From the NCBI GenBank assembly GCA_964456425.1, contig CAYWAX010000001.1, forward strand, positions 20,277-68,872: a stretch of 48,596 nucleotides of DNA, written 5' to 3'. Origin of the DNA: an uncultured Nitrospinaceae bacterium. GTDB taxonomy: Bacteria > UBA8248. The position numbers were made by a program, and so were the translations under genes. Positions 2,737 through 37,650 of the stretch are shown here, one piece after another. How positions within the stretch are numbered: the stretch's first letter is position 1; each line of letters opens with the position of its first letter. The notes below the pieces were generated by a model, which saw nothing but the letters and a program-made list of their open reading frames with translations, was not told the origin of the DNA and searched no databases.

Positions 2737-3468
2737 TTAGATTTCTACAATAAGAAGAACTGATGAAATAATCATTATAAGAATTGCAGTTCCATAAAGT
2801 ATCTTATTTGGTAAAAATTTTATTAAAATTCTTCCTACAGAAAAACCTAAGACTGCTGGGAAAATTCCAATCAAAGATTCTATAATAATCTTCTTGTTAA
2901 ATTGTCCCATACCGCTCAGTGCTCCCACCTGAACCAATGAAAAGAATAGAGTTGCGATATATAAGATTTTTATGAGTTCTGTTTTTTTGATTCCTAAACT
3001 GTCGAGAAACATCACACATAAAGCACTTCCCGTGTAGGAAATTCCACTAAACCATCCACCAAAAAATCCTGCAAAGTAAGTAAAAAAAATCTCATCTCTC
3101 ATGTCCAAATGCACCCGTAGTTTTGAAATACTATGTATTGCGAGTAGGAGAAGAATAAAGCTAATGAAATATTTAATGAATGTTGCTGGAAAAGCAACAA
3201 ACGAAATTACGCCAAGTATAGTTCCTAAGCATCCTGCGCCAATAAATGGAAGGTATCTCTTAATTGATGTAAAAGATATCCCAACATAAATAGAACGAAG
3301 TAACATAAGAGCTAAATTTGGGATTGCGAGATATATAATTGATTCTTTAATTCCAATAAACGCTCCGAGAGTTGGGACGGCAAGAAGAGCAAAATCAAAC
3401 CCGATTGCACCTTCAAAAATTGAAGAAACAAAGATTATTAGTGGTTTTTCCCATTCTATTGTTAGCAT
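2737..3468 (-). CDS. TauE/SafE-like (sulfite exporter family) integral membrane permease
   Basis: 243 aa, hydrophobic throughout (about 7-8 predicted TM spans), Gly-rich helices. The family assignment is by general resemblance only. Confidence 0.6.
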   Translation of the reverse strand: MLTIEWEKPLIIFVSSIFEGAIGFDFALLAVPTLGAFIGIKESIIYLAIPNLALMLLRSIYVGISFTSIKRYLPFIGAGCLGTILGVISFVAFPATFIKYFISFILLLLAIHSISKLRVHLDMRDEIFFTYFAGFFGGWFSGISYTGSALCVMFLDSLGIKKTELIKILYIATLFFSLVQVGALSGMGQFNKKIIIESLIGIFPAVLGFSVGRILIKFLPNKILYGTAILIMIISSVLLIVEI

Positions 3469-3491
3469 TATTCTTTCTAATTTTAAAAAGT

Positions 3492-4475
3492 TTATAGATT
3501 AAGAATTGTTTGAGCATTTTTATGTGAAATATTGTCATATTCATCACTACTTAGTCCTGCATTTTCCAATGTTTTCACTATTTGCTCATCCGTCATATCA
3601 TAGGGCAAATCAGTTCCAAGCATAATTCTATCACTTCCGATAAGATCCACGAGAAATCGAACTACAGGAGAGTGAAATAATAAACAGTCGAAGTAAAAAT
3701 TTGATTTCATATATTCAAGAGGCGATTTTTGTATATTTTGACATTCTTTTCGTACTTTCCAGCCATGCATAAATCTTCCTGCGAGATATGGTGCGGTTCC
3801 TCCACCATGCAAGAAGATAAATTTTAAATCAGGAAGACGGTCAAAAATTCCTGAGAAAATAAGCCTTCCAATGCTATTTGCGCTTTCTGTAGTAAATCCA
3901 ACTAAATTGAAAAGATAGTAATCTTTCATTTCTGACATACCAGCTGGGTTTGCAGGATGAACGATAATCGGAACTTTCAAAGATGCTGCTTTTTCATAAA
4001 TAGGAAAAAAACATTCATGATCCAAGTACCTACCGTTTACATTTGTTCCTAAGAATCCACCTTTTAAACCGAGTTCTTTCACACTACGCTCCAGTTCTAG
4101 CGATGAAAGATTTCCATCTTGAGCAGGAAGGGCAGCAAATCCTGCAAATTTCTCTGGTCTTTCCTTGATAATTTTTGCATACGCATCATTCGATACTTTG
4201 CATAACTCATTCGCAAGTTCGGAGTCGGCCCAATAAACACCTGGATTTGAAGAAAAAGAAAGTATATTCATATTAAGACCCATCTCTTCCATTTTTTTCA
4301 GTCTCAAATCAACATCCGTGAAATTTTGCAGATTGCCAAAAGTCAGGCCTTTGACAATTATTTTTCTATCTCCATCACTGTTTTCTTGCACTTCTGCTCC
4401 AAGTCGTGCGCGTTCTTGTTTTATTAAATTGACATATTCATTAGGGTAAATATGACAGTGAATATCTATATGCAT
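3492..4475 (-). CDS. Amidohydrolase_2 (ACMSD / metal-dependent decarboxylase-hydrolase) family protein
   Basis: MHIDIHCHIYP metal-binding HxH start and C-terminal GTDLPYD motif. Start placed at the ATG preceded by GGAG; the longest ORF extends to 4508. Paralogous to 15472-16467. Confidence 0.75.
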   Translation of the reverse strand: MHIDIHCHIYPNEYVNLIKQERARLGAEVQENSDGDRKIIVKGLTFGNLQNFTDVDLRLKKMEEMGLNMNILSFSSNPGVYWADSELANELCKVSNDAYAKIIKERPEKFAGFAALPAQDGNLSSLELERSVKELGLKGGFLGTNVNGRYLDHECFFPIYEKAASLKVPIIVHPANPAGMSEMKDYYLFNLVGFTTESANSIGRLIFSGIFDRLPDLKFIFLHGGGTAPYLAGRFMHGWKVRKECQNIQKSPLEYMKSNFYFDCLLFHSPVVRFLVDLIGSDRIMLGTDLPYDMTDEQIVKTLENAGLSSDEYDNISHKNAQTILNL

Positions 4476-4647
4476 TGTAACTTCTCCGAGTAAGGAATGA
4501 TTCACCATAGAATCTAAACATTTTGTTTAGACATTTTTGTAATTATAATGTTTTTGAAAAATTAAGTAACCGTGCATTTTATTTATCGGTCATTTCTTTT
4601 CTATGCAATGCAGTTGTAAAATAGCTAATAATTTACTAGGAGAATTC

Positions 4648-7374
4648 TTGAGTACTAAAGAACAAAAGAAAATTTTCTTAATAGATGGTTCGGGATATAT
4701 GTTCCGAGCTTATTACGCGATGATGCGGCAGAACTTAAGAAATTCGAAAGGTACCCCCACTGGTGCCGTTCTTGCTTTTACTCGAATGCTCTTAAAAGTT
4801 ATTAAAGACAAAAAACCTGATTATGCTGCTATTGCTTTTGATAGACCTGAACCCACGCATAGACATTCTATTTTTCCTAAATACAAAGCAAACCGTGATG
4901 CTGCACCAGAAGATCTAGTTTCGCAAATTCCGTTGATTCATCGCGTTGTTGAGATCTTAAATATTCCTCTTCTTGTAGAGGCAGGTTTAGAAGCAGACGA
5001 TCTTTTAGGTTCTCTTGCACACGAAGCTTTGAAAGAGAAATTTGAAGTTCTTCTCATAACTGCAGATAAAGATTTTGCACAGTTAGTGAATGAGAAAATT
5101 CGTATATGGGATCCAATGAAGGATGAAGAATATGGTCCTAAAGAAATCGAAGAAAAATGGGGAATTGCTCCTGATAAATTTATAGACATTCAAGCACTTA
5201 TGGGTGATTCCACAGATAATATTCCTGGTGCGCCAGGCATAGGAGAAAAAACAGCAGTTTCCCTGATTCAAGAATTTGGGAGTCTAGATAATTTATTGAA
5301 ATCGGTTACAAAAGTGAAAAGACCTAGGCAAAAACAAATCCTCGAAGAAAATAAAGATTTGATTTTGCTTTCAAGGGAACTTTGTAGAATTAAGTGTGAT
5401 GCTGAACAGAAAAATTCTCTGGAGAATTACAGATTGAAAGATGCAAATATTGAGTTAGGGAGAGAACTTTTTATAGAAGAACTTGAGTTTAAAAATATTT
5501 TAGAACAACTTCCCGGTTATGAATCTAGTGATTCGAAAACAACAGAAGATACAGAACCTTTGATTCAAAAAAATGAAAAGTACAGAAAAATCATATCAAA
5601 ATCTGATTTAGGAAAACTTATCAAAACTTTGGAGAAGAGTACTTCTTTTTCCATAGATCTTGAAACAACGTCTTTAGACCCTAAAGAAGCTGAAATTGTT
5701 GGTTTGAGTCTGAGTGTTAGTGCAGGCGAAGCATTCTATATTCCTGTTGGACACAAGAATGAACCGAAAAGTGAGCAACTTTCTTTGAAACTAGTAATGA
5801 AGGAACTCTCTCCTTTCCTACTTTCTGAAGAAAAGGAGAAAATTGGTCAAAATATAAAGTATGATATTTCCGTTTTTAGAGAAAATGGATATGAAATCAA
5901 AGGAAAGATTTTTGATACTATGCTGGCTTCTTATCTCATTCTATCTAACCGGACGAGTCATGGATTGGATCATCTTGCAGAAGAATATTTTGGTATTTCC
6001 ACGATTAAATATGTGGATATTTGCGGGAAAGGTGCTAAGCAGATTTCTTTTTCAGAAGTTTCCATTGAAGATGCAACGCAATATGCCTCTCAGGATGCAG
6101 ATATTACCTTTCGTTTAGCAGAAAAAATGAAAGAACAATTGAAGGAAGATAAACTGGACGAATTATTTTCTGATTTAGAAATTCCTCTGTTAGTAATTTT
6201 ATTAGATATGGAGACAACGGGAATTCGATTAAATGTAGACCTTTTGAATAGAATGAGTTCAAAGTTAGAAGTTGAGCTAGAAGGGATGACCAAAAAAATA
6301 TATGAGTTAGCTGAAGAAGAGTTCAATATTAATTCTACAGTACAATTACGTCGCATCCTTTTTGAAAATCTTAATCTTCCGATAATGAAAAAAACAAAGA
6401 CAGGTGCATCTACAGATATTGATACACTAGAAAGATTGTCCCACCTTCATGAATTGCCCAATATGATTCTTCAATATAGACAACTTACAAAACTAAAAAA
6501 CACGTATGTCGATGCTCTTCCAAGACTTGTGTATAAGAAAACAGGTAGAATTCACACTCATTTTAATCAAACTATTACTGCAACCGGTCGTTTAAGTAGT
6601 TCTGATCCAAATTTACAAAATATCCCAATTAGAACAGACCTTGGAAAAGAAATCCGATCTGCATTTATTCCAAAAGAAGGTTGGTCTATTTTTGCATGTG
6701 ATTATAGTCAAATTGAACTTCGAGTGTTGGCACACTTTACACTCGATCCGAGTTTAGTAGACGCATTTTCTAAAGGAGAAGATGTTCATTCTACTACTGC
6801 TTCCGCGGTATTTGGTGTTTCACTGAATGAAGTAACATCAGAAATGCGACGAATTGCAAAAGCCGTGAACTTTGGAATAATTTATGGCCAAGGTGCATTC
6901 GGTCTATCTAAAACACTTGGAATTCCTCAGAGTGAAGCTCGTTCTTTTATTGAAAAATATTTTGAACGTTTTGCAAGTGTCCCCGCATTTGTCAATAAGA
7001 TAGTCGAAGAAGTTAAAGAAAAAGGATATATTTCTACTTTGCTTGGGAGAAGAAGGTACATTCCTGACATTGAAAGTAGAAATCAGAATTTAAGAAGAGC
7101 TTCTGAGAGAACTGCAGTCAATTCTGTTATTCAAGGGAGTGCGGCAGATATAATTAAAAAAGCGATGGTTGATATTTTTACTAAATTAGAAACTGAAAAC
7201 AAACAAACAAAAATGTTAGTTCAAGTACATGATGAATTACTGTTCGAATCGCCTCGAAAGGAATTAGAGTCCTCCATGGAATTCGCTTCAAGCGAGATGG
7301 AAAATGCAATTTCGTTAGAAGTGCCAGTGGTAGTCGAAGTACATGCTGGAAAGAATTGGGGAGAGTTGAAATAG
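4648..7374 (+). CDS. polA: DNA polymerase I (5'-nuclease, 3'-5' exonuclease and polymerase domains)
   Basis: FLIDGSGYMFRAYYA 5'-nuclease start, SIDLETTSL ExoI motif, DYSQIELRVLAH motif A, QVHDEL motif C. Start placed at TTG 4648 after an AGGAG RBS; the longest ORF starts at 4603. Confidence 0.95.
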   Translation: MSTKEQKKIFLIDGSGYMFRAYYAMMRQNLRNSKGTPTGAVLAFTRMLLKVIKDKKPDYAAIAFDRPEPTHRHSIFPKYKANRDAAPEDLVSQIPLIHRVVEILNIPLLVEAGLEADDLLGSLAHEALKEKFEVLLITADKDFAQLVNEKIRIWDPMKDEEYGPKEIEEKWGIAPDKFIDIQALMGDSTDNIPGAPGIGEKTAVSLIQEFGSLDNLLKSVTKVKRPRQKQILEENKDLILLSRELCRIKCDAEQKNSLENYRLKDANIELGRELFIEELEFKNILEQLPGYESSDSKTTEDTEPLIQKNEKYRKIISKSDLGKLIKTLEKSTSFSIDLETTSLDPKEAEIVGLSLSVSAGEAFYIPVGHKNEPKSEQLSLKLVMKELSPFLLSEEKEKIGQNIKYDISVFRENGYEIKGKIFDTMLASYLILSNRTSHGLDHLAEEYFGISTIKYVDICGKGAKQISFSEVSIEDATQYASQDADITFRLAEKMKEQLKEDKLDELFSDLEIPLLVILLDMETTGIRLNVDLLNRMSSKLEVELEGMTKKIYELAEEEFNINSTVQLRRILFENLNLPIMKKTKTGASTDIDTLERLSHLHELPNMILQYRQLTKLKNTYVDALPRLVYKKTGRIHTHFNQTITATGRLSSSDPNLQNIPIRTDLGKEIRSAFIPKEGWSIFACDYSQIELRVLAHFTLDPSLVDAFSKGEDVHSTTASAVFGVSLNEVTSEMRRIAKAVNFGIIYGQGAFGLSKTLGIPQSEARSFIEKYFERFASVPAFVNKIVEEVKEKGYISTLLGRRRYIPDIESRNQNLRRASERTAVNSVIQGSAADIIKKAMVDIFTKLETENKQTKMLVQVHDELLFESPRKELESSMEFASSEMENAISLEVPVVVEVHAGKNWGELK

Positions 7375-8141: not shown

Positions 8142-10376
8142 ATGAAGTCTTCGATTGATTTGAAAGAAAAAGATATCCTTTCTTTTTTTGCTGACAAACA
8201 TTCTCCAGTTTTATTTCGAGAAGTTGTTTCTGCCCTTGGCATTTCTTCCGATGAAAGAGGATTGTTCAGAAAAAAACTTCGCGGTTTGGTAGAAGAAGGA
8301 AAACTTGTCAGATCAAGGAGAAAGTACTCCATTCCAAAAAATATGCCGACAGTTCGAGGTATTTACAGAGGAAACAAACAAGGATTTGGTTTTGTGATTC
8401 CAGAGAAAGATGGCATTCAATCTGAGGAAGATTTATTTATAGGTCCCCGTTCTTTTTTAAATGCAATAGATGGAGATTTGGTTCTTGCTAGGCAGGAAAA
8501 AATGGATCCTGATGGGAGACGTGCCGGTAGAATTGTCGAGATAATTGAGCGTGGTAGAGATCACATTATAGGAAAACTTCTATTTTCCGGAAAACGTGCT
8601 TGGATTGAACCCCAAGAAGATAAGTTGCCTTTCAAAATTATAGTCAATTCCAAGAAAATTAAAAAAAATAATGTGGGTGAATGGGTAGAGACCAAAATTA
8701 GTTCTTATCCCAATCCAAAGGAAGATGGGAAGGGGGAGATAACAAAATATTTTGGTTCACCAGGTGATCCAAAAACAGAAGAAAAAGTGATATGCGAAAA
8801 GTTTGGTCTATTTCAAGAATTTTCTAAATCCGTACTACAAGAATCTGAAAAATATTCTCCTATAGATGAGAAAAAGGAACTTCCTGAAGAAGTTGAGGAT
8901 TGTAGGGGTCTTGAGGCATTTGCGATAGATCCTATAGACGCTAGAGACAGAGACGATGCAGTATCTATCGAATCACTGCCGAAAGGAGGGTGGCGTTTAG
9001 GAGTACATATCGCAGATGTAAGTTTTTTCATCAAAGAAGGTTCCCTTATTGATCAAGAAGCGATGCAAAGAGCCAATAGTGTGTATTTCCCGCATAAAGT
9101 GTTTCCGATGCTACCAAAGAAAATCACAAATCAGATCTGTTCTTTAGACGAAAATAAAGTCCGAAGAACGATGAGTGTTTTTTTAGATTTCAATGCATCC
9201 GGAAATCAAAAAGGATTTCGCGTAGCACAGACATATATTAAATCTTTTGCTTCGTTAGACTACGAAAGTGTTGGGGAGTTTTTAAACGGGGAACCTGTTT
9301 CCAACCCTACACAGGTACTGAAAATAAAAGAATTAGAAAAATCTCTCCTGCAGTTGTCGAATCTCACTCAAAAAATGCGTTCAAAAAGATTTCAAAATGG
9401 AAGTTTAGATTTTGATCTACCAGAAGCAAAAGTTTCTATAGATAAAAACGGATATCCGACAGGGATTAAACGTTCTGATAGGAATCAAGCACATATGCTT
9501 ATTGAAGAGTGTATGCTTGCAGCGAATACGGCAGTTGCAGAGTTTCTTGGTACAGTTCGATCAGAGAGTATATACCGCATTCATGAATGTCCTTCCGAAG
9601 ACAAGGCAAATTCTTTTCGAAATCTTGTTTCAAGACTAGGGTATCCTGCCCCATCGACGGAGATGCTTCTTAAACCCAATGGATTTCAAGAAATACTGAA
9701 TCTATTTCGAGGGAAAAAAGAAGAAAGATTTATGAGCCTAGTAGCACTGCGAAGTATGAAATACGCTAGATACCACCCGAACCCGGGACTACATTTTGGT
9801 CTAGGAATCGAAAAATATACCCATTTTACTTCTCCTATACGCAGATATGCAGACCTAGTGGTACATCGAATTTTGAAAAAAAGATTATTTGAGAAAAATC
9901 AAAGAAAAAAGAAAGCAAGTTTCTTATCTCTTTGCGAAAACATATCTGAACAAGGACGTAAGACAGAAGAAGCAGAGAGAGAAATGATCAATTTTTATAA
10001 AACACTATTTATGAAAAAATATATTGGGAAAGTATTTAAAGGACATGTATCTGGAACCACATCTTTTGGTATTTTTGCAGAATTGGATGATTTTTTTGTA
10101 GAAGGGTTAATTCCATTAGAGTCGATCAAGGATGATTATTATGAATTTTTTCCTGATGATTATTCAGTTATTGGAAAACGAACGAATAAACGTTATCGAT
10201 TAGGCGATCCACTTGAAGTTCTTGTAGAAGATGTGGATTTAGATTTAAGAAGGATTTCTTTTGTGTTATCTGATTTCGTAAAAAAAGAAAAGAAACCAAA
10301 GAAAAAGGGAAAAATAACGAAAGCACGTATGAAAGTTAGAAAACGAAAAGCAATCGGAAAAAGAAGGAAGAGATAA
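8142..10376 (+). CDS. rnr: Ribonuclease R (RNB domain, S1 domain, Lys-rich C-terminal tail)
   Basis: 744 aa. AIDPIDARDRDDAVS RNB motif, HFGL...YTHFTSPIRRYADLVVHR, C-terminal S1 domain then KKEKKPKKKGK tail. GAGGA RBS. Confidence 0.9.
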   Translation: MKSSIDLKEKDILSFFADKHSPVLFREVVSALGISSDERGLFRKKLRGLVEEGKLVRSRRKYSIPKNMPTVRGIYRGNKQGFGFVIPEKDGIQSEEDLFIGPRSFLNAIDGDLVLARQEKMDPDGRRAGRIVEIIERGRDHIIGKLLFSGKRAWIEPQEDKLPFKIIVNSKKIKKNNVGEWVETKISSYPNPKEDGKGEITKYFGSPGDPKTEEKVICEKFGLFQEFSKSVLQESEKYSPIDEKKELPEEVEDCRGLEAFAIDPIDARDRDDAVSIESLPKGGWRLGVHIADVSFFIKEGSLIDQEAMQRANSVYFPHKVFPMLPKKITNQICSLDENKVRRTMSVFLDFNASGNQKGFRVAQTYIKSFASLDYESVGEFLNGEPVSNPTQVLKIKELEKSLLQLSNLTQKMRSKRFQNGSLDFDLPEAKVSIDKNGYPTGIKRSDRNQAHMLIEECMLAANTAVAEFLGTVRSESIYRIHECPSEDKANSFRNLVSRLGYPAPSTEMLLKPNGFQEILNLFRGKKEERFMSLVALRSMKYARYHPNPGLHFGLGIEKYTHFTSPIRRYADLVVHRILKKRLFEKNQRKKKASFLSLCENISEQGRKTEEAEREMINFYKTLFMKKYIGKVFKGHVSGTTSFGIFAELDDFFVEGLIPLESIKDDYYEFFPDDYSVIGKRTNKRYRLGDPLEVLVEDVDLDLRRISFVLSDFVKKEKKPKKKGKITKARMKVRKRKAIGKRRKR

Positions 10377-10420
10377 AAATAGTAGCCAAATTAGGAAGAA
10401 TCGATTATATTTAGTTTTCG

Positions 10421-10455
10421 ATCGAAGGACCCAGTGGGTTTTCTTCGATTTTTTT
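10421..10455 (+). terminator. Rho-independent terminator after rnr
   Basis: ATCGAAG...CTTCGAT stem (7 bp outer plus inner GC pairs) followed by a T-run (TTTTTTT). Confidence 0.6.
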
Positions 10456-10481
10456 ATTTAAAATTGTGAAAAGAGGAAGTC

Positions 10482-10946
10482 ATGAGCGGAGTAAAGATTA
10501 TATCCGTGAATAAAAAAGCAAGAATGGAATTTGCGGTGGAAGATACCTACGAAGCAGGCATGGTGTTAACCGGTACCGAAGTGAAATCTATTCGTGAGGG
10601 ACACGTCAGTCTTAAAGAAAGTTTTGGGGACGTGAGGGACGGTGAAGTGTGGCTAGTTGATTGTCATATTAACCCATACGGACACGGGAATGTTCATAAT
10701 CACGAAACTACAAGGATTCGAAAGCTTCTTTTCCATAAAAACGAAATTCGCCGTTTGATAGGAAAAATTAACGAGAGAGGATATGCGTTAGTTCCCCTAA
10801 AAATGTATTTTAAGGCCGGAAAGGTGAAACTTGAAATAGGTCTCGGAAAAGGGAAAAAGATGCATGATAGGCGTGAGGACTTAAAAAAACGTGATGCCAA
10901 CCGCGAAATTGAACGTGCCCTTCGTGACCGACATAAAGGAAGATAG
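10482..10946 (+). CDS. smpB: SsrA-binding protein SmpB
   Basis: 154 aa. NKKARMEF...EAGMVLTGTEVKSIR...HKNEIRRL, classic SmpB. Confidence 0.95.
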   Translation: MSGVKIISVNKKARMEFAVEDTYEAGMVLTGTEVKSIREGHVSLKESFGDVRDGEVWLVDCHINPYGHGNVHNHETTRIRKLLFHKNEIRRLIGKINERGYALVPLKMYFKAGKVKLEIGLGKGKKMHDRREDLKKRDANREIERALRDRHKGR

Positions 10947-10965
10947 TTTCCTAGGAGATTGTGTG

Positions 10966-11160
10966 ATGAATATTTTTACTGATTATACACTTAGCTGGTG
11001 GCAAATGGGTTTGGTGAAATATTCCTCTTTTGCTTTGGGACTGATGATAGGTTCCATATGGCCTCTTTTTTTTAAACGGTATCGTCTGTTCTTTTGGATG
11101 TTTATCATTGGATCTTGGATCTATCTTATTCCCTTAGGGATACAATTGATGTTTTCATAA
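10966..11160 (+). CDS. Small hypothetical membrane protein (64 aa, two hydrophobic spans)
   Basis: The ORF track gives 10891-11160, overlapping smpB. The internal ATG at 10966 leaves MNIFTDYTLSWWQMGLVKYSSFALGLMIGSIWPLFF... No recognisable family. Confidence 0.3.
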   Translation: MNIFTDYTLSWWQMGLVKYSSFALGLMIGSIWPLFFKRYRLFFWMFIIGSWIYLIPLGIQLMFS

Positions 11161-11185
11161 TCTTCTTTTTTTGTAATGATGGTCT

Positions 11186-11213
11186 TTTACATAAGTTCAC
11201 CATGTGTTATATC
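11186..11213 (+). promoter_or_regulatory. Candidate sigma70-type promoter for the tmRNA precursor
   Basis: TTTACA - 16 nt - TGtTATATC (extended -10), about 50 nt upstream of the mature tmRNA 5' end. By-eye match only. Confidence 0.3.
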
Positions 11214-11263
11214 GCATTCCCACAAAACTTTTGGTCGTCGTTTTGTGGAGAATCTTCATTTAT

Positions 11264-11620
11264 GGGGGCGACCTGGTTTCGACGGGAGGATTTGAAGTCT
11301 GAGCTGCGTGTCGGGGACGCCACTTGGCCCCGTTATCAATGTGGCAAAACTATACCAGCAGATAAACAGCTGGCTCTCGCAGCCTAGATTGCGAGCGTCT
11401 CTCCTTTTTTTGTCCGTGAGATTGGAAGAGACGACGTTAGCGGACTAGTTTGAATTTTCTTCTGTTCGTAGGGAATTTGAGCGAAATTTAATCGAACTAG
11501 CTAGGGTGACTGCACTCTGGCGAGCGCTAACCCCGGCGAATCTTTAATCGCCAGATACACACGTAGACGCTCACGGCTGAAACCTTGCGGACGCGGGTTC
11601 GATTCCCGCCGCCTCCACCA
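11264..11620 (+). ncRNA. ssrA: tmRNA (SsrA), 357 nt
   Basis: 5' GGGGGCGACCUGGUUUCGACGGG and 3' GGACGCGGGUUCGAUUCCCGCCGCCUCCACCA form a tRNA-Ala-like acceptor (GGGGGCG/CGCCUCC with G3:U) and T-arm with encoded CCA. Internal tag frame ...GGC AAA ACU AUA CCA GCA GAU AAA CAG CUG GCU CUC GCA GCC UAG (11342-11386) ends in ...ADKQLALAA. Confidence 0.9.
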
Positions 11621-12863: not shown

Positions 12864-13457
12864 TTAAGGTTTTCCAATTAACGATTTTCGAAAACGGTGG
12901 GTAACCGTGATTCCATCGATGGGAGGCATGATAAGAGGAAGGTCTTCTTTAGCTACCCTAATATTTATAAAAACAGGACCTGTCCCGCTGATAATTTCTT
13001 GTTGGGCATTGGCAAGATCTTCTTTTGTAATTGCGGTGGAGGCATTTTCTATACCTGCTCCTTTCGCGACCATTTCTAGGTTGGTTCCGCCTGAAGTAGC
13101 CGTTTCTTGGCCACCTGTTTCTCCGTAAATACCGTTATCTAAAACCGCGATTGCTAGGTTAGATGGTTTTTGGGTACCAATTGTAGCTAAAATTCCCAGA
13201 CTCATTAACATATCCCCGTCTCCTGTAATCACTAGAACACGGTTTTCCTCTCTTGCAAGTGCTAGTCCAAGAGCAGTAGGCACGGTCATTCCCATAGCAC
13301 CTATAAAATAAAAATTTTGATCGGTGTCTCCAGCGGCAGCTAAATCCCAGGTGGAGGATCCAAGACCGGAGAGAACAAGAAGATCTGGTTTTCTATCTTT
13401 GACAAGTTCAGCAACGACTTCTCTTCTTAAAAGTGTAGACACCTTAATTTTCCTCAA
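12864..13457 (-). CDS. ThDP-dependent decarboxylase beta subunit (sulfopyruvate/phosphonopyruvate decarboxylase ComE-like, PP-binding domain)
   Basis: 197 aa. ThDP-Mg motif ITGDGDMLMSLGILATIG...VLDNG. 14-nt overlap with the upstream alpha-subunit gene. Confidence 0.7.
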   Translation of the reverse strand: MRKIKVSTLLRREVVAELVKDRKPDLLVLSGLGSSTWDLAAAGDTDQNFYFIGAMGMTVPTALGLALAREENRVLVITGDGDMLMSLGILATIGTQKPSNLAIAVLDNGIYGETGGQETATSGGTNLEMVAKGAGIENASTAITKEDLANAQQEIISGTGPVFINIRVAKEDLPLIMPPIDGITVTHRFRKSLIGKP

Positions 13458-13956
13458 ATTGTTTAGCGCCGATTAATCTTTGCGATAGAAGAACGGAAAC
13501 AGGCTTTCTTGTATTAAACGCAAATTTTACGGCTGCATCTGTCGTTTCATATACCTCTTCAGCATTGTTGGCTCTAAAATTTGTAACTCCCATTGCTTCA
13601 AACACCTTTGGGGTACCCTGTCCCATAGGGACTTGCCAAGGAATAAATTCTCCCCATTCTCCTCGCATAGATACGACCGTGACGAAAGGCATTTTACAGG
13701 TGACAGGAAGAGCAAGGGCATTGATAGTATTTCCTACCCCGCTACTTTGCATTAAAAGCGCGCCTTTCTCACCCCCAAGCCAAGCGCCACTTACAAGACC
13801 TACCCCTTCTTCCTCAGTAGTAAGGGTAACGACCTTGATATTTTCGTCTTGTTCGCACATTTGTAGAAGCTGTAGATGTCCAGCATCCGGAACATGGCAC
13901 ACGCAGGTAATATTCTGTTCTTTAAATACTTTGAATATTTCAGCTGGCCAGTTCAT
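13444..13956 (-). CDS. ThDP-dependent decarboxylase alpha subunit (ComD-like, PYR domain)
   Basis: 170 aa. VCHVPDAG...TTEEEGVGLVSGAWLGGEKGALLMQSSGVGN. The size and split architecture match archaeal-type ComD/ComE. Confidence 0.7.
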   Translation of the reverse strand: MNWPAEIFKVFKEQNITCVCHVPDAGHLQLLQMCEQDENIKVVTLTTEEEGVGLVSGAWLGGEKGALLMQSSGVGNTINALALPVTCKMPFVTVVSMRGEWGEFIPWQVPMGQGTPKVFEAMGVTNFRANNAEEVYETTDAAVKFAFNTRKPVSVLLSQRLIGAKQFEEN

Positions 13957-13971
13957 CTTATTTTTCCTAAT

Positions 13972-14622
13972 TTATTTAGTTTGTTCGTTTGGGTGCACTT
14001 TATCCGGTGGAGGATATACTCGCTCCATTTGGAAAATATCTTGTGTCCTGCAATAGTTAGCGCCGCCAAGTCTTCCTAACGGTTCTAATTTTTCAGGATT
14101 AATATATTTTCCATCAATCATAAGATCCTCTCTTACATGCCACAATAGGATTCTTCCAATCACAAGATGTGTTTTCCATTTATCTCCGTATGTGTGAAGG
14201 TGTTCTAATTCGCATTCCATAGTGATAGGAGAATCTTTAATACGCGGCGCTTTTACGATCTGAGAAGGTTCTGTTTCTAAATCAAGTTCTTTGAATTCGT
14301 TTTCTTCAGGTTTAAAATTTGCAGAACTTTCGTTCATGGCATTTCCAGTTTCATTTACTACGGTGTGTATCACATATCCTTTAGTTTCTATGATATTTCT
14401 AGAGGTATCTTTCATATTATAATCTCGTTCTCCTACAGAAATCGATACCAGAGGAGGAGCATGACAAACGCAGGTAAAAAAACTAAAAGGAGCAAGATTA
14501 GCAACTCCATCGGAACTTATCGAACTTACCCATGCTATAGGTCTAGGAACGATAGAGCCCGCTAAGAGTCTATAAGTTTGCATATGGTCAATTTCAGATG
14601 TATTAAATGTTACGTAACTCAT
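13972..14622 (-). CDS. Flavin reductase-like FMN-binding domain protein
   Basis: 216 aa. IVPRPIAWVSSISSDGVANLAPFSFF is the hallmark of the flavin reductase-like (HpaC-type split-barrel) domain. Confidence 0.8.
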   Translation of the reverse strand: MSYVTFNTSEIDHMQTYRLLAGSIVPRPIAWVSSISSDGVANLAPFSFFTCVCHAPPLVSISVGERDYNMKDTSRNIIETKGYVIHTVVNETGNAMNESSANFKPEENEFKELDLETEPSQIVKAPRIKDSPITMECELEHLHTYGDKWKTHLVIGRILLWHVREDLMIDGKYINPEKLEPLGRLGGANYCRTQDIFQMERVYPPPDKVHPNEQTK

Positions 14623-14648: not shown

Positions 14649-14701
14649 AAAAAAAGAATTTATCGCTTTTCAGTATCGATGTGATAGAAAAGCGATAAAT
14701 T
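14649..14701 (-). terminator. Rho-independent terminator after the selenoprotein gene
   Basis: Perfect 15-bp arms AATTTATCGCTTTTC (14657-14671) and GAAAAGCGATAAATT (14687-14701). On the minus strand the hairpin is followed by C + TTTTTTT (plus-strand A-run 14649-14655). Confidence 0.65.
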
Positions 14702-14732
14702 CAGTATGTGTCTATAATAAATTACCTAAACG

Positions 14733-15368
14733 TTATGCGTTTTGTTCAGCCAAGAGTTCATCAAGGACTTCTTCCAGCCTATCTGCTTCAGCCCAGTCAG
14801 CCTTATATGCAATTTTACCCTCTTTATCAACAACAAAAGTCATATTCGGCATTCTGCCAAATGCAGTAACAACTGCTTCATCTAGACCATCAATGAGTAC
14901 AGGAACCTTCATATCATGTTCTTTTACCAACTGTGAAGCGTATTCTTTTTTATGCTCGTAAGATGTGTGCTGTGTGAAATTTTTAAAATATCTACCTTCT
15001 TCAGCATGAGGTTCTTTGGAATATACTACGAAAAATTCTACATCTTTCGAACGGTATTTTTCGTATGCGTCTTCTATGCCAGGCACCTGCCGGCGATAGG
15101 GAGGTCAGGTGATAGCACCAAATTCAATCACGATATTTTTTTTGCCCTTAAAATCTTCTAGGTTAAATTCTACATCTTCTGTAGTCTTTAACTTTACAGG
15201 AGGCATTGCATCTCCGGATTTAAGAGTGTCTACAAATGCGTTTTTTCTTTCTTTTCGAGATCCCGTGAAAACATTACGGTAAATAAACTTCCACTTATCA
15301 ATGTACAGCGAACTCCAGAATCCAAATAATGGGCCCGGAGGTCTATCAAAAATTTCTTCTTTTTTCAT
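14733..15368 (-). CDS. Iodothyronine-deiodinase-like thioredoxin-fold selenoprotein (211 aa; in-frame UGA at complement 15105-15107 read as Sec)
   Basis: Track ORFs 15105-15368 and 14733-15086 share one frame and are separated only by TGA plus six sense codons. The joined product reads ...KGKKNIVIEFGAIT-U-PPYRRQVPGIEDAYEKYRSKDVEFFVVYSKEPHAEEG..., matching the deiodinase FGS.TUP.F ... F.V(I)Y..EAH core. A SECIS-like hairpin follows the UGA. Confidence 0.8.
15074..15099 (-). promoter_or_regulatory. Candidate bacterial SECIS hairpin
   Basis: mRNA reads UGA CCUCC [CUAU C GCC GG C(AGGU)G CC U GGC AUAG]. That is 4 bp, a C bulge, 3 bp, a bulged U, 3 bp, and an apical AGGU loop beginning 16 nt after the UGA. 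G-containing loop plus bulged U resembles the fdhF-type SECIS. Confidence 0.6.
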
Positions 15369-15471
15369 AGAGTTAACCCCCCATGTAGTTAAAAAATTTA
15401 ACTTTCATCTAATGTATTTTAATTATATTTATTTTCAACTCTAATTGCCAGTAATACTTTTTTTTTTATTA

Positions 15472-16467
15472 CTAAAGTCCAAGAAGCTTTGCAGGTATTT
15501 TTCGAAGAATATTATCTTCTTCTTCTGAAGAGAGTCCTGCATCTTCTACAAAGTCTACAACATTTTCCTGCATCATATCGTAAGGATAATCTGTCCCACA
15601 TATAACATGTTCAGAACCAACTTCTTGTACAAGCCATTTGAGACCTGAAGGATTAAACGTAATCACATCAAAATATAGATTTTTAAAATAATGACGAGGG
15701 GGATGAGGTGTATGGACCTTTGTTTCTGGTCGCTCCTCCCATGCGTGTTCTATTCTTCCAATTGCCCAAGGGAGATTTCCTCCTGCATGTGCGAGGAGTA
15801 CCTTAAGGTTTGGATACCTTTCGAAATGTCCTGATAAAATTAATCTAGTGGCTGCGACAGTTGTTGATAAGGGATTCCCAACACAATTTGCCATGTAAAA
15901 GGGGAAAAGTGGTTTATAATCCGCAAAATCAGGATGTATAAAAACTAACGCTCCTAATTTTTCGGCTGCTTCCCAAAAGGCATCAAATTGCGGTTCGTCT
16001 AAAGCCTGACCAGCGATTCTATCAGAAATAATACAACCTAAAAGACCATTAGACATACTTCTTTCCAACTCCTTTGCCGCGTCTACTCCTCCGTTTTGTA
16101 GCGGAAGATTGGCAAGTCCTCTGAATTGAGCATAATTATTTTTACAGAAATCAGCAGTCCCATTATTTTGTAATTCTATAATTTCTTTTCCTTTAGAACC
16201 TCCTATCCAATAATAAAATGTTGGAGGTGGAGGCGATACAAGTGCCATATCAAGTTTATCTGCTTTCATGTCACTTAATTTTCTATCTAGACTAAGAAGT
16301 TGTTCTCCCCATTTTTCTTTAGTAAGTTTAGCGTTATGTTTTGATGAGACCTCGGGAAAAAAACCTTCAAAGCTATCTGCATGTTGCGGACGCTTGTCTC
16401 TTTCTACTTTAGCTAAATCTTCTGCTTCTTGTATATAAATGTGGTGATGCATATCTATGTTCGACAA
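15472..16467 (-). CDS. Amidohydrolase_2 (ACMSD-like metal-dependent decarboxylase/hydrolase) family protein
   Basis: 331 aa. IDMHHHIY start, LLAHAGG, GTDYPYDM. The C-terminus DAGLSSEEEDNILRK parallels NAGLSSDEYDNISHK of 3492-4475. AGGAG RBS before the TTG start. Confidence 0.8.
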   Translation of the reverse strand: MSNIDMHHHIYIQEAEDLAKVERDKRPQHADSFEGFFPEVSSKHNAKLTKEKWGEQLLSLDRKLSDMKADKLDMALVSPPPPTFYYWIGGSKGKEIIELQNNGTADFCKNNYAQFRGLANLPLQNGGVDAAKELERSMSNGLLGCIISDRIAGQALDEPQFDAFWEAAEKLGALVFIHPDFADYKPLFPFYMANCVGNPLSTTVAATRLILSGHFERYPNLKVLLAHAGGNLPWAIGRIEHAWEERPETKVHTPHPPRHYFKNLYFDVITFNPSGLKWLVQEVGSEHVICGTDYPYDMMQENVVDFVEDAGLSSEEEDNILRKIPAKLLGL

Positions 16468-29315: not shown

Positions 29316-29390
29316 AGGCGCGTAGCTCAGGGGGAGAGCGCTTGCTTGACAGGCAAGAGGTCGGCGGTTCAAAACCGCCCGCGCCTACCA
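29316..29390 (+). tRNA. tRNA-Val (anticodon GAC), 75 nt with encoded CCA
   Basis: AGGCGCG/CGCGCCT acceptor, GCTCAGGGGGAGAGC D-arm, CTTGC-TTGACAG-GCAAG anticodon arm, GGCGG-TTCAAAA-CCGCC T-arm, A-CCA. Confidence 0.9.
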
Positions 29391-29423
29391 CTTATATTTA
29401 AAAGGATAAAGTTAATTTCAAAA

Positions 29424-31295
29424 ATGTCTAATAATAAGGATAGTTCATCCGAGAAAATAATTGCTGCTAAAATAGACAACCAAGTTGTAGATTTAGATAT
29501 TGTGTCCCCTGACGATGATAAGGCGGAATTTATTTTGCTAGGTTCGGAGGAAGGTAAAGAAATACTTCGTCATAGTACGGCACATGTTATGGCACAAGCA
29601 ATTCTTGAAATTTTCCCCAAAGCACTCTTTACAATTGGTCCACCAATAGAAAATGGTTTTTATTATGATATTGATTTAGAGAGGTCAATTACATTAGATG
29701 ATCTTGATATCATAGAAAAAAAGATGAAAGAAATTGCAAAAAGAAACTTGCAGTTTTTAAGGCAAGAAATTGAAAGAGATGATGCAATAAAACTTTTTAG
29801 CGATTTGGGGCAAAGTTATAAAGTAGAAATGATTAAAGATCTCTCTGTTGAAGAAAAACTTTCTATTTATAAACAAGGTGATTTCATAGATCTTTGTAGA
29901 GGACCACATGTCCCTTCAACTAAATCTTTAAAGTTTTTTAAACTTTTAAATGTTGCAGGTGCTTATTGGAGAGGCGATGAAAATAACAAGATGCTTCAGA
30001 GGATTTATGGGACATCTTTTCCAAGTGAAAATGAACTCAATGACTATCTGACTATGTTAGATGAATCAAAAAAGAGAGATCATAGAACACTAGGGAAACA
30101 ACACAGTTTATTTTTAACAGATGAAATGGCAGGTAGTGGACTTATATACTGGCAACCTAAAGGAACAGTTATTAGAAAAACTATTGAAAGATTTTGGGAA
30201 GACGAACATGTACGAAGAGGATATGAATTAGTTTCGATTCCTCATATTGTTAAAGATGAAATGTTTCACACCTCCGGACACTACGAGTATTATCATGAAA
30301 ACATGTATGTTTTAAACGTTGATGAGAATGAGTACGTTTTAAAGCCGATGAATTGTCCTGGACATATTTTAATATATCAACAAGCTATTCATAGCTATAG
30401 AGATTTGCCAATTAGATATGCAGAATTGGGAACAGTTTATAGATATGAGAGAAGTGGAACTCTGCACGGTATGCTTCGTGTTCGTGGATTCACTCAAGAT
30501 GATGCACATATTTTTTGTACCCCTGATCAAGCAGAAGACGAAGTATTGGCAGTTATAGATTTAGCTCATTTTATGCTTGAAACATTCGGATATAATGATT
30601 TCATAACCGAACTTTCAGTTCATGATAGTAATAATTTTGAAAAATATGCTGGGGTTTTGGAAGACTGGGAAACTGCTGAAACCGCTCTTATTAATGCACT
30701 TGAAAAGAGGCAAATTTCTTATAAGCGTATTGAGGGGGAAGCAGCATTTTATGGGCCAAAAATTGATATAAAAATGCTAGATGCATTAGGTCGTGGATGG
30801 CAGGGGCCTACCATCCAGTTTGATTTCAATTTGCCAAAGCGTTTTGATTTAAATTATGTGGGACAAGATGGTGATCGTAAAAAAGTAGTAATGATACATA
30901 GAACAGTTTTAGGTTCAATGGAAAGATTTGTAGGAGGTTTAATTGAACAATATTCTGCATCTTTCCCAACTTGGCTTTCTCCGATACAAGCTCGTGTCAT
31001 GAGTATATCAGATGATCAAATACCTTATGCTGAAGAAGTATTGAAAGAATTAAAAAAATTTAATATTAGAGTAGATTCTGACTTTAGAAATGAGAAAATA
31101 GGTTATAAGATACGACAAGCGGAATCAGATAAGGTTCCATATATGCTAGTTATTGGTGCTAGAGAGGTAGATTCTTCTCATGTTTCTCTTCGTGTTCGTG
31201 GACAAGGGAACAAAGGTTCCTTTATAATCAGTGAATTGATTGAAAAAATTATAGAAGATATTAAATTAAGAATACCTTCACCAAGGGTTAATTAA
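29424..31295 (+). CDS. thrS: Threonine--tRNA ligase
   Basis: RHSTAHVMAQAI, class II motifs (FRGDE-like YWRGDENNKMLQRIYG, RVRGFTQDDAHIF). Start moved to ATG 29424 because the longest ORF (TTG 29346) lies inside tRNA-Val. Confidence 0.95.
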   Translation: MSNNKDSSSEKIIAAKIDNQVVDLDIVSPDDDKAEFILLGSEEGKEILRHSTAHVMAQAILEIFPKALFTIGPPIENGFYYDIDLERSITLDDLDIIEKKMKEIAKRNLQFLRQEIERDDAIKLFSDLGQSYKVEMIKDLSVEEKLSIYKQGDFIDLCRGPHVPSTKSLKFFKLLNVAGAYWRGDENNKMLQRIYGTSFPSENELNDYLTMLDESKKRDHRTLGKQHSLFLTDEMAGSGLIYWQPKGTVIRKTIERFWEDEHVRRGYELVSIPHIVKDEMFHTSGHYEYYHENMYVLNVDENEYVLKPMNCPGHILIYQQAIHSYRDLPIRYAELGTVYRYERSGTLHGMLRVRGFTQDDAHIFCTPDQAEDEVLAVIDLAHFMLETFGYNDFITELSVHDSNNFEKYAGVLEDWETAETALINALEKRQISYKRIEGEAAFYGPKIDIKMLDALGRGWQGPTIQFDFNLPKRFDLNYVGQDGDRKKVVMIHRTVLGSMERFVGGLIEQYSASFPTWLSPIQARVMSISDDQIPYAEEVLKELKKFNIRVDSDFRNEKIGYKIRQAESDKVPYMLVIGAREVDSSHVSLRVRGQGNKGSFIISELIEKIIEDIKLRIPSPRVN

Positions 31296-32094: not shown

Positions 32095-32195
32095 TTTAGA
32101 AAGATTTTAGTATCGATGGTTGCGTTATTTATTGCATGTAGATATATTCGCTGACCTCGTTTGTTTGAGTTTCTTTAAGTTTTTAGGAGTTTCAG

Positions 32196-32549
32196 ATGCC
32201 ACGTTCAACTGGAAATGTTGCTGGTCGTGAACGACATAAAAGAGTTTTAAAGCAAGCAAAAGGTTTTAGGGGTGCTCGATCAAAGCGTTTCAGATCAGCT
32301 CGAGAAACTCTACTTAGATCAATGGCTTACGCAACGAGAGATAGAAGAACTAGGAAAAGAGAATTTAGAAGATTATGGAATGTGAGGATTAATGCTGCAG
32401 CTCGTGAATTTGGTTTATCCTACAGTAAATTTATAGGAGGATTAAATAAAGCTGGAATTGATGTAAATAGAAAGGTTTTAGCAGATTTAGCTGTAACCGA
32501 TCGATCATCTTTTTCACAATTAGTAGAACTAGCTCGGGCAGAAATTTGA
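32196..32549 (+). CDS. rplT: 50S ribosomal protein L20
   Basis: [30 protein letters not shown]..., canonical L20. Ends with TGA. Confidence 0.95.
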
Positions 32550-36847: not shown

Positions 36848-37030
36848 AAGACCCTGTCGTGAACGTGATGGGTGAAAGTATTTGACCCAGTAATTTTTGA
36901 AAAGGGAATCCTTCCATAAGGTGGTGAGTCATTTCCATTTGGATTTGAACCTAAAGCCTAATTTTGGATACCCACCTGGCCAAGGCTGGGTTCATAGCTT
37001 AACTCACACGGCACAATGATGGGGTCGTCT
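36848..37030 (+). ncRNA. ssrS: 6S RNA (SsrS), about 180 nt; ends approximate (+/-10 nt)
   Basis: 270-nt ORF-free spacer between zapA and the 5-formyl-THF cyclo-ligase gene, the conserved ssrS locus as in E. coli zapA-ssrS-ygfA. A long imperfect closing helix pairs GACCC/UGUCGUG/GACCCAG (5' arm) with CUGGGUU/CACGGCA/GGGUC (3' arm). An internal AGGUGG/CCACCU helix flanks an open central region. Segments GGUGGUGAGUCAU and CACCUGGCCAAGGCUGGGUUCAUAGC resemble E. coli 6S as I recall it. Confidence 0.75.
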
Positions 37031-37053: not shown

Positions 37054-37650
37054 TTGACTTCTTATAATCTAGTAGAGAAGAATTTTTTGAGAGAAAAAAT
37101 AAAAAAAAGAAGGAATGGTATATCCGAGAGTAAAAGAAGCGTTTTCAGTTTTAATTTATGTAATAGACTTGAATTCTTTTTAACAGTTTTTCAGTTTAGA
37201 AATATAGCGATATTTTATCCAATTGATCAAAATAAGGAGATTGATATTTCTTCAATTTGGGGATTTTTTAAAAATCCTAATAGAGTTTTTTATTTTCCAA
37301 AAGTAAATGGCAAAGACCTTGATTTCTATTCAGTGGAAAATTTCAGAGACGATTTTTCAGTTGGATATTCGAATATTTTAGAACCTAATGATTGTGATAT
37401 TGAAGTTGATATTTCAGTTTTTGATGTAATACTAACTCCTGGGTTGGCATTTGATTTGTATGGAACTAGATTGGGTTATGGTAAAGGATTTTATGATAAA
37501 TTTTTGAGTATTTTAGATTTAAAAACTATAAAGGTAGGTGTAGGTTATTCATTTCAGTTTTTTTGGGAACGAAGTATACCATCAAAAGAATGGGATCAAC
37601 GTCTTGACTGGGTTATAACCGACAAAGAGTTGATTAAATGTTCCTGTTAA
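37054..37650 (+). CDS. ygfA: 5-formyltetrahydrofolate cyclo-ligase
   Basis: 198 aa. LTPGLAFDLYGTRLGYGKGFYDKFL signature. TTG start. Confidence 0.8.
   Translation: MTSYNLVEKNFLREKIKKRRNGISESKRSVFSFNLCNRLEFFLTVFQFRNIAIFYPIDQNKEIDISSIWGFFKNPNRVFYFPKVNGKDLDFYSVENFRDDFSVGYSNILEPNDCDIEVDISVFDVILTPGLAFDLYGTRLGYGKGFYDKFLSILDLKTIKVGVGYSFQFFWERSIPSKEWDQRLDWVITDKELIKCSC

Follow-up and report, generated by a model that had tools for sequence, protein, structure and literature searches.

Prokaryotic "deiodinase-like" selenoproteins, with cysteine (Cys) homologues and a bacterial selenocysteine insertion sequence (SECIS), were first described from the Sargasso Sea (Zhang, Fomenko & Gladyshev, 2005; PMC1088965). 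A 2026 review still leaves the function of this family open and gives its motif as UxxC (PMC13188914), U being selenocysteine (Sec). The other close comparison is with the iodothyronine deiodinases Dio1-3 (4TR3/4TR4, 9H48), of which Dio2 has a proton relay formed by Ser127, Thr129, Tyr157, Glu160, His162 and His182 (PMC11592359). Here we describe a gene of this kind in a 48,596-nucleotide (nt) stretch of DNA from an uncultured Nitrospinaceae bacterium (contig CAYWAX010000001.1 of assembly GCA_964456425.1), referred to below as the window. A first-pass annotation of the window had proposed that two adjacent open reading frames (ORFs) hide one deiodinase-like selenoprotein with a recoded UGA, and had described such proteins as uncharacterised and mostly known from marine metagenomes; the description agrees with both accounts of the bacterial family (PMC1088965, PMC13188914), and the proposal is supported by conservation of the TGA, by the Cys column of the homologues and by the family match.

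The gene shares with the family of 2005 a PF00837 thioredoxin fold, an origin in marine bacteria, an active-site UGA, Cys homologues and a SECIS-like element directly downstream. It departs from the reviewed UxxC form (published representatives AACY01143874 and MFL2763324.1): the Nitrospinota clade to which it belongs has U-P-P-Y/F and no conserved Cys, a contrast drawn with the listed motif, and its active site is therefore closer to the animal type. The likeness to Dio1-3 extends from FGAIT-U-PPY, beside FGS(A/C)T-U-PPF, to 'VYSKEPHA', beside 'VYI(E/D)EAHP', and includes the relay Thr, Tyr, Glu, His and His and possibly an insertion at the loop-D position. Unlike in the animal enzymes, the SECIS-like element lies within the coding sequence, not in the 3' untranslated region, and there is no clear transmembrane anchor.

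One gene with an in-frame UGA

The gene occupies a single minus-strand frame whose sole interruption is one TGA, with neither frameshifts nor further stops (Table 1). The ORF list cuts this frame into a piece of 87 amino acids (aa; 15105-15368) and one of 117 aa (14733-15086, with a GTG start at 15086), and between the TGA and the GTG lie six sense codons, CCT CCC TAT CGC CGG CAG. The joined product of 211 aa reads ...NIVIEFGAIT-U-PPYRRQVPGIED..., and over a longer stretch around U ...KKNIVIEFGAIT-U-PPYRRQVPGIEDAYEKYRSKDVEFFVVYSKEPHAEEG.... Both the arrangement of the two ORFs and the joined reading reproduce exactly what the first-pass annotation had set out. It had also predicted that automated annotation would fragment the gene, as public records indeed do: for this gene and its orthologues they hold an 86-aa piece and a C-terminal piece of 116-124 aa as separate genes, named 'hypothetical protein [Nitrospinae bacterium]' or, for a C-terminal fragment in one JGI record, 'peroxiredoxin'. 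Nearly all homologues in a large protein collection are likewise C-terminal fragments of 116-124 aa. The two "fragment" ORFs are one gene.

We extracted the gene from 23 related loci, which gave about 20 distinct full-length sequences with 38-63% GC from different samples and assemblers (ENA, JGI, Logan, NCBI). The nearest public relatives are contigs of metagenome-assembled genomes (MAGs) labelled uncultured Nitrospinaceae or Nitrospinota, with protein identities of 97% (L007) and 90% (L014); a JGI metagenome contig (L023) is 100% identical, and the genes around the locus are collinear in the closest relatives and 88-100% identical. TGA stands at the same codon in every extracted locus but one, flanked by EFGAIT and PP[YF]RRQ. 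Neither the homology nor the placement of the TGA is remotely attributable to chance. The exception, L001 (ENA ERZ23491842 scaffold_12031, 14-664), has ACG GGC (Gly) in place of ACC TGA, and its hairpin loop is changed from GUG to GGG as well; the gene otherwise seems intact. This may be a true variant that has lost Sec, and presumably catalysis with it, or a mistake in a single contig of 2.8 kb.

Homologues that span the site mostly carry Cys there. The full-length orthologue P0002, searched exhaustively with phmmer against a library of 1.84 billion representatives, returned 1603 relatives, 405 of them at E <= 1e-10. Among the best 149 of the 1603, the U column is Cys in 95 of the 116 homologues that span it (motifs such as FGSYTCPVFR and FGSITCPPF), and about 33 are fragments starting just past the site, as further UGA forms would be expected to do. 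Pairing of TGA with Cys is the standard SECIS-independent criterion for a selenoprotein, for which the 2005 study used a threshold of more than 50% TGA/Cys pairs (PMC1088965); 95 of 116 exceeds it. The alignment of Cys homologues with the UGA, to which the first-pass annotation had looked for confirmation, thus came out in favour of a bacterial selenoprotein.

Deiodinase family membership and active site

Scored with U replaced by C, the joined protein matches three Pfam families above their cut-offs: Redoxin (62.6 bits), T4_deiodinase (PF00837; 61.4 bits against a cut-off of 27) and AhpC-TSA (53.2 bits). The deiodinase match expected from the first pass was therefore recovered; Pfam alone is not discriminating, because Redoxin and AhpC-TSA, from the same clan, also pass, but a search of profile against PDB does discriminate. 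With the profile of the bacterial family as query, the best hits are Dio3 (E 4.8e-32) and Dio2 (2.8e-25), and the next thioredoxin-fold protein follows at 1.9e-17; with the single sequence they are Dio2 (9h48, E 3.9e-9) and Dio3 (4tr3, E 7.4e-8), aligned over the whole catalytic domain. The NCBIfam model NF038285, 'deiodinase_rel' (a hypothetical equivalog of 347 aa), scores 91 bits, short of its cut-off of 250, and the match covers only its C-terminal 146 profile positions; the protein is related to that subfamily and not a member of it. An AlphaFold (AF2) model of P0002, a Gly-variant orthologue, was built with a predicted local distance difference test score (pLDDT) of 89.3 and a predicted template modelling score (pTM) of 0.82; a helix starts at residue 88, and the top Foldseek match is 4tr3, the Dio3 catalytic core, with Bcp1 and ResA close behind.

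The motif FGAIT-U-PPY aligns column for column with FGSATCPPF of Dio2 and FGSCTCPPF of Dio3, and its U column is the position at which Sec was changed to Cys in the Dio2 and Dio3 crystal constructs, which bears out the earlier claim that the UGA falls on the deiodinase catalytic Sec. The equivalents of the Dio2 relay, Ala85, Thr87, Tyr116, Glu119, His121 and His134, are all invariant in the orthologues, and five of the six match Dio2. The segment at the position of loop D (omega loop), model residues 116-135, is non-regular, lacks the conserved Trp and, with 12 residues from one His to the other, falls short of the 16-19 of Dio2 and Dio3. In the thyronine clamp, formed in Dio3 by His202 and Arg275, the His equivalent is present, and Arg275 aligns with Met/Asn in 'GRMPNMTF'. 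Besides Sec itself no Cys column is conserved among the orthologues, and the window protein has no Cys at all, so that, unlike the animal enzymes, it has none for internal regeneration. From these comparisons the product is a member of the iodothyronine deiodinase family, predicted to be a 211-residue cytoplasmic thioredoxin-fold enzyme and probably not a thyroid-hormone deiodinase; thyroid hormones are not expected as substrates.

What the enzyme does is a separate matter from how its UGA is read. Sec would stand at the N-terminus of helix alpha-1, near the relay equivalents Thr87, Tyr116, Glu119, His121 and His134, and its selenolate would attack a small electrophilic substrate. Because no Cys is conserved, the oxidised selenium (Se-X or Se-OH) would then have to be reduced by an external reductant; one candidate for this role is the flavin reductase or PNPOx-type flavoprotein that recurs beside the gene. 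Tentatively, we rate deiodinase-type reductive removal of halogen from a phenolic or aromatic compound as the likeliest activity, at a little under an even chance, with action on hydroperoxides or another redox reaction as the main alternative.

That alternative takes the product to be a Sec protein, decoded in the same way, that acts as a selenium peroxiredoxin (Prx) or thiol-type oxidoreductase on hydroperoxides or protein disulfides. It is a serious possibility, if a somewhat less probable one. Like Prx (BCP/PrxQ, AhpE) and ResA/TlpA, the protein has a thioredoxin-like fold with an N-terminal beta-hairpin and its nucleophile at the start of helix alpha-1; Bcp1, ResA and AhpE follow Dio3 closely in Foldseek (E ~1e-10 for Prx and ResA against the bacterial model), the Redoxin and AhpC-TSA scores are on a par with that of T4_deiodinase, and one public fragment bears the name 'peroxiredoxin'. 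A generic redox role was proposed for the bacterial proteins in 2005 (PMC1088965), and deiodinases have themselves been called peroxiredoxin-like (PMC11592359). The active site argues the other way. The PxxxT/SxxC motif of Prx, which genuine Prx relatives among our loci (L016-L022) carry, is absent, positions -7 and -3 from Sec being Ile and Ala in VIEFGAIT-U; absent too is the CxxC or UxxC pair of ResA/TlpA, as U-P-P-Y/F is followed by no second conserved Cys that could complete a CxxC or act as resolving residue. The profile search sets all other thioredoxin-fold structures 15 orders of magnitude in E-value behind the deiodinases, and at least that far in the case of Prx and ResA/TlpA, and the Tyr, Glu, His, His and Thr of the deiodinase relay are invariant.

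Set against dehalogenation as the activity are several points. The assignment draws on family resemblance and a loose gene context; Redoxin scores as high as T4_deiodinase, and Prx and ResA folds lie nearly as close as Dio3; the relay Ser is replaced by Ala and the equivalents of Dio3 Arg275 and Trp207 are unconserved, so a thyronine-like substrate is unlikely; and a terminator-like hairpin lies between the selenoprotein gene and the flavin reductase gene (Table 1), which weakens the argument from a shared operon.

Sec-containing Prx are a known selenoprotein family, and one of the Prx homologues that we collected probably belongs to it: in L019 (2833-3222; Chloroflexi MAG JACPRP010000053.1) an in-frame TGA stands at the peroxidatic Cys (FFYPLDWTPV*TRELPS).

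The hairpin downstream of the UGA

RNAfold predicts a hairpin that starts 5 nt past the UGA, with the stem CUAU.GCCGGC, the loop AGGU (15085-15088) and the return strand GCC(U)GGCAUAG; 6 base pairs (bp) and one bulge, the U at 15081, are followed by 4 bp, the lower stem being CUAU/AUAG. The apical loop starts 16 nt past the UGA. This is the fold that the first-pass annotation had drawn by eye, here with a computed energy of -12.2 kcal/mol, and the bacterial SECIS architecture that it had ascribed to the hairpin agrees with published rules. The bSECIS model calls for an apical loop of 3-9 nt, a stem of 4-16 bp, a UGA-to-loop distance of 16-37 nt and a minimum free energy <= -7.5 kcal/mol, with G in the first two loop positions and then G or U (PMC13188914). 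Applied by hand, these rules place the hairpin within all four constraints, the loop being 4-5 nt long and the 16-nt spacing lying at the lower limit.

The loop is AGGU here and AGGUG or AGUU in other clades, and its start is fixed at 16 nt past the UGA across clades while the register of the stem varies. Three registers occur: the AT-rich clade has a 4-nt loop and the bulged U; in some GC-rich clades a perfect stem of 7 bp carries an AGGUG loop; and in other GC-rich clades a CCGGC-AGGU-GCCGG top is combined with an internal bulge of 3 nt. A hairpin is thus kept in the orthologues, a point on which the first-pass reading could have failed, with a stem register that differs by clade. In its GC-AGGU loop, and in how far that loop lies from the UGA, the element closely resembles the reference bacterial SECIS, that of Escherichia coli fdhF, which likewise has its hairpin directly 3' of the UGA, G-C closing pairs around a loop that begins AGGU and a bulged U in the upper stem; the GU of the loop is at positions 22-23 after the UGA here and at 23-24 in fdhF. 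Unlike in fdhF, the bulged U is on the 3' side and found only in the AT-rich clade, and the hairpin is shorter overall.

Selection on the RNA is visible at synonymous sites. When the segment was recoded synonymously under the codon usage of the window, only 0.4% of the sequences folded as stably (P = 0.004), and within-gene permutation of synonymous codons gave P 0.004-0.03 in AT-rich orthologues. Several of the stem codons, CGC-CGG-CAG-GTG-CCT-GGC, are rare in the window: over 38 genes, CGC and CGG account for 3.2% and 1.8% of 679 Arg codons, GTG for 12% of Val and GGC for 9% of Gly, and the codon choices for YRRQVPGI have a joint probability of 2e-7 under this usage. Ranked by synonymous variation, the six lowest 6-codon windows of the gene begin at codons +1 to +6 past U (0.07-0.23; the median is 0.51). 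In every orthologue R+5 is CGG and Q+6 is CAG, whereas other invariant Arg columns use 3-5 codons, and codon +7 is always GTG or TTG. Two pairs show compensatory change: pair 15-29 is C-G in most orthologues and U-A in L024, at the cost of a Gly-to-Asp replacement, and pair 12-31, which the window has as U-A, reads C-G in L009; a G-C pair has become G-U in L025. Synonymous freezing, rare codons and the two compensatory changes together indicate selection on the hairpin at the level of RNA.

Probable selenocysteine insertion and its alternatives

On these comparative grounds, which are strong, we infer that Sec is inserted: the catalytic residue is almost certainly selenocysteine encoded by UGA codon 88. 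Loops of this kind recruit SelB-GTP-Sec-tRNA(Sec) in bacteria, whereupon Sec is inserted and translation goes on. Codon 88 would accordingly be no stop in this gene; the AGGU loop 16 nt downstream would be presented to the decoding machinery, SelB-GTP-Sec-tRNA(Sec) would be recruited there, and Sec would enter the chain. We regard the reading as a whole, one deiodinase-family gene whose UGA 88 is decoded as Sec by way of the downstream hairpin, as highly probable.

A split gene would account for some of the same facts. The UGA would end an 87-residue peptide, the C-terminal 117 residues would be made from the GTG or TTG at 15084-15086, and the two pieces would associate; codon +7 is always one of these two possible starts, and it is there that gene callers place the start of the downstream ORF. 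The GTG is conserved because it belongs to the hairpin loop, however, which counts against a role as start, and no Shine-Dalgarno spacing precedes it. The codons between TGA and GTG encode PP[YF]RRQ, which is invariant; Cys homologues translate a matching CPPFRRQ (YTCPVFRRQVE and YTCPPFRRR are instances), and CPPF in Dio2 and Dio3 aligns with it. The break would moreover hit the catalytic residue itself, where helix alpha-1 begins. We consider a split gene very improbable.

Still less probable is a pseudogene, or a TGA that arose by sequencing or assembly error in a gene with Cys (TGC or TGT) at this codon. The window itself is a single assembly, and the GGC of L001 shows that the codon can change; against this, the same TGA recurs in about 20 distinct orthologues from independent samples and assemblers, the 100% identical JGI contig among them, and the frame is otherwise unbroken. 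The ratio of nonsynonymous to synonymous substitution rates (dN/dS) is 0.02-0.28, where computable, both upstream and downstream of the TGA, as expected of purifying selection on both halves, and between clades the proportion of synonymous differences (pS) runs from 0.4 to more than 1 (saturated), with that of nonsynonymous differences (pN) far lower on either side. We exclude a pseudogene or assembly error because the TGA is kept across independent orthologues and both halves are under purifying selection.

UGA is elsewhere in the window an ordinary, if rare, stop: it terminates rplT, and internal TGA codons are absent from all other genes. The ORF at 32187-32549 encodes ribosomal protein L20 (rplT; Pfam 141.6 bits) with the profile covered to its end, which confirms the first-pass observation that rplT stops at TGA (32547-32549); when TGA is read as sense, none of the about 45 other credible genes in the 48.6 kb gains an internal TGA. 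As a stop it is nearly unused in this DNA of 34.7% GC: rplT alone uses it among the about 45 credible genes, and the 32 stop-to-stop ORFs that reach 200 codons close with TAA (25) or TAG (7), never with TGA. Genome-wide reassignment of UGA to Trp (code 4) or Gly (code 25), as applied by some pipelines to judge by W at the site in P0001, whose gene caller therefore used code 4, and W or G in other library entries, is the least credible explanation of all, given the L20 gene that ends at TGA, the lack of internal TGA in other genes and a homologue column that is Cys and not Trp or Gly.

Other results weigh against Sec insertion at this site. The hairpin is no more stable than dinucleotide shuffles of its sequence (z = -0.42), and in GC-rich orthologues within-gene permutation of synonymous codons gave P 0.04-0.5, not a significant fold; stability alone was dropped as evidence because it is ordinary by these comparisons, and we therefore relied on conservation at synonymous sites. 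A single consensus structure could not be built, because the stem register differs among clades, and compensatory events are few. A permissive Rfam scan of the hairpin region returned no SECIS family, only noise at E > 6, a result that is uninformative because bacterial SECIS elements are poorly represented there. No tRNA-Sec was found in the window or in 21 orthologous loci, no sel genes among the 38 window ORFs, and none of selA, selB, selC and selD in 36 fetched loci or in 10-kb extensions past the window start or around P0033. For a different lineage, SelA and SelB have been reported from bins of sponge symbionts, a 'Nitrospinae' bin among them (PMC5649159). The literature on selenium in 'Nitrospinae' that we found concerns these sponge-symbiont bins and a selenoprotein-rich lineage placed by GTDB in a separate phylum, UBA8248, that is, lineages other than this AT-rich Nitrospinaceae clade.

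Genomic context

The features of the locus are collected in Table 1. Promoter-like sites in the region are no more numerous than in shuffles, which makes the upstream candidate weak evidence. Downstream, the terminator-like hairpin has a predicted energy of -23.9 kcal/mol (z = -6.0; 0 of 200 shuffles as stable); a terminator scan limited to loops of <=8 nt missed it. The gene is probably monocistronic in this genome.

Table 1. Features of the deiodinase-like selenoprotein locus (positions in the window).
Feature	Position	Strand	Details and basis
Deiodinase-like selenoprotein coding sequence	14733..15368	minus	211 codons and TAA stop (14733-14735); ATG at 15366-15368
UGA codon 88, read as Sec (predicted), motif FGAIT-U-PPY	15105..15107	minus	TGA in orthologues, Cys column, alignment to Dio2/Dio3
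SECIS-like hairpin within the coding sequence	15074..15099	minus	RNAfold -12.2 kcal/mol, bSECIS rules, synonymous constraint, compensatory changes
Shine-Dalgarno-like run GGGGGG (putative)	15377..15382	minus	8 nt upstream of ATG; read from sequence
Promoter-like CTGGCA-18 nt-TATAAT (putative)	15422..15451	minus	In the 103-nt upstream gap; consensus scan 10/12
Intrinsic-terminator-like hairpin	14649..14702	minus	~16-bp stem and U7, 30 nt past the stop; RNAfold
Amidohydro_2 family protein, upstream neighbour	15472..16467	minus	Pfam 98.6 bits
Flavin reductase-like protein (FMN-binding split barrel), downstream neighbour	13972..14622	minus	Pfam Flavin_Reduct 84.3 bits

Adjacency to the Amidohydro_2 gene is kept in the two closest clades, and adjacency to the flavin reductase gene in the window clade and in L001-L004, L015, L026 and L027; in L009 and L024 a PNPOx-like flavoprotein is encoded directly downstream, in place of the flavin reductase. 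Two kinds of surroundings recur. One runs from MetH, FolE2, a MazG-like gene and Amidohydro_2 to the deiodinase-like gene, and on through an optional luciferase-like monooxygenase, the flavin reductase, an optional hypothetical gene and PNPOx. The other comprises Iso_dh, a GNAT (FR47) gene and the deiodinase-like gene, then, encoded on the other strand, two major facilitator superfamily (MFS) transporters. L025 carries a cupin gene and an FAA-hydrolase gene upstream. By guilt by association, the split-barrel partner and enzymes typical of aromatic-compound metabolism are compatible with phenolic or aromatic substrates.

Some relatives show local peculiarities. In L024 a homologue of SelO, a protein adenylyltransferase, is encoded on the other strand at 251-1819, about 2 kb upstream of the deiodinase-like gene and separated from it by an MFS transporter gene. 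GC-rich relatives have a helix-turn-helix (HTH) and reverse-transcriptase (RVT_1) gene pair a few kb downstream of the locus (L002, 11025-12246), and in one variant, L004, an HNH-endonuclease gene (4629-5402) stands between the deiodinase-like and luciferase-like genes; the pair and the insertion suggest local mobile-element activity. A molybdenum enzyme encoded beside the deiodinase-like gene in L009 was considered as a second selenoprotein and rejected: it has no in-frame TGA, and the ORF upstream of it is a separate PNPOx-like protein.

Elsewhere in the window, two overlapping ORFs just past the flavin reductase gene (12864-13956) encode the N- and C-terminal TPP-binding halves of a split thiamine-diphosphate (TPP) enzyme that resembles sulfopyruvate or phosphonopyruvate decarboxylase, and 2737-4508 holds a TauE sulfite-exporter gene and a second Amidohydro_2 paralogue. 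A trans-translation cluster at 8142-11620 consists of RNase R (8142-10376), SmpB (10482-10946) and transfer-messenger RNA (tmRNA; 11264-11620, tag ADKQLALAA). A 6S RNA (36848-37029; Rfam 66.8 bits) directly precedes a 5-formyltetrahydrofolate cyclo-ligase gene (37054-37650), which is the ssrS-ygfA arrangement of E. coli. The listed TTG start of the 649-aa ORF at 29346-31295, putatively thrS by position, overlaps a tRNA-Val gene (29316-29390), and its real start codon therefore lies further downstream.

Implications

The existence and decoding of such selenoproteins are textbook knowledge, and the gene is a well-supported further member of the family described since 2005; what it adds is a correct re-annotation, within a kind of system already known. 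The corrected reading restores a complete redox enzyme from records annotated as hypothetical fragments or 'peroxiredoxin'. Should the UGA be decoded as Sec, the Nitrospinaceae, a lineage named for major marine nitrite oxidisers, would include members that need selenium for at least one protein.

A more specific proposal goes further: the enzyme, with its animal-type deiodinase active site and its occurrence in marine nitrite-oxidising Nitrospinaceae and relatives of these, may be a Cys-free, Sec-only reductive dehalogenase of iodinated or brominated phenolic metabolites, regenerated by the adjacent flavin reductase or PNPOx-type flavoprotein and not by a resolving thiol. Taken in full it is unlikely. 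If true, it would make the enzyme a bacterial counterpart, and possibly an evolutionary precursor, of thyroid-hormone deiodination, and it would tie selenium to marine halogen cycling. A clade that combines the deiodinase-type relay with no Cys offers a clean model for the function of bacterial deiodinase homologues and for the recycling of their selenium.

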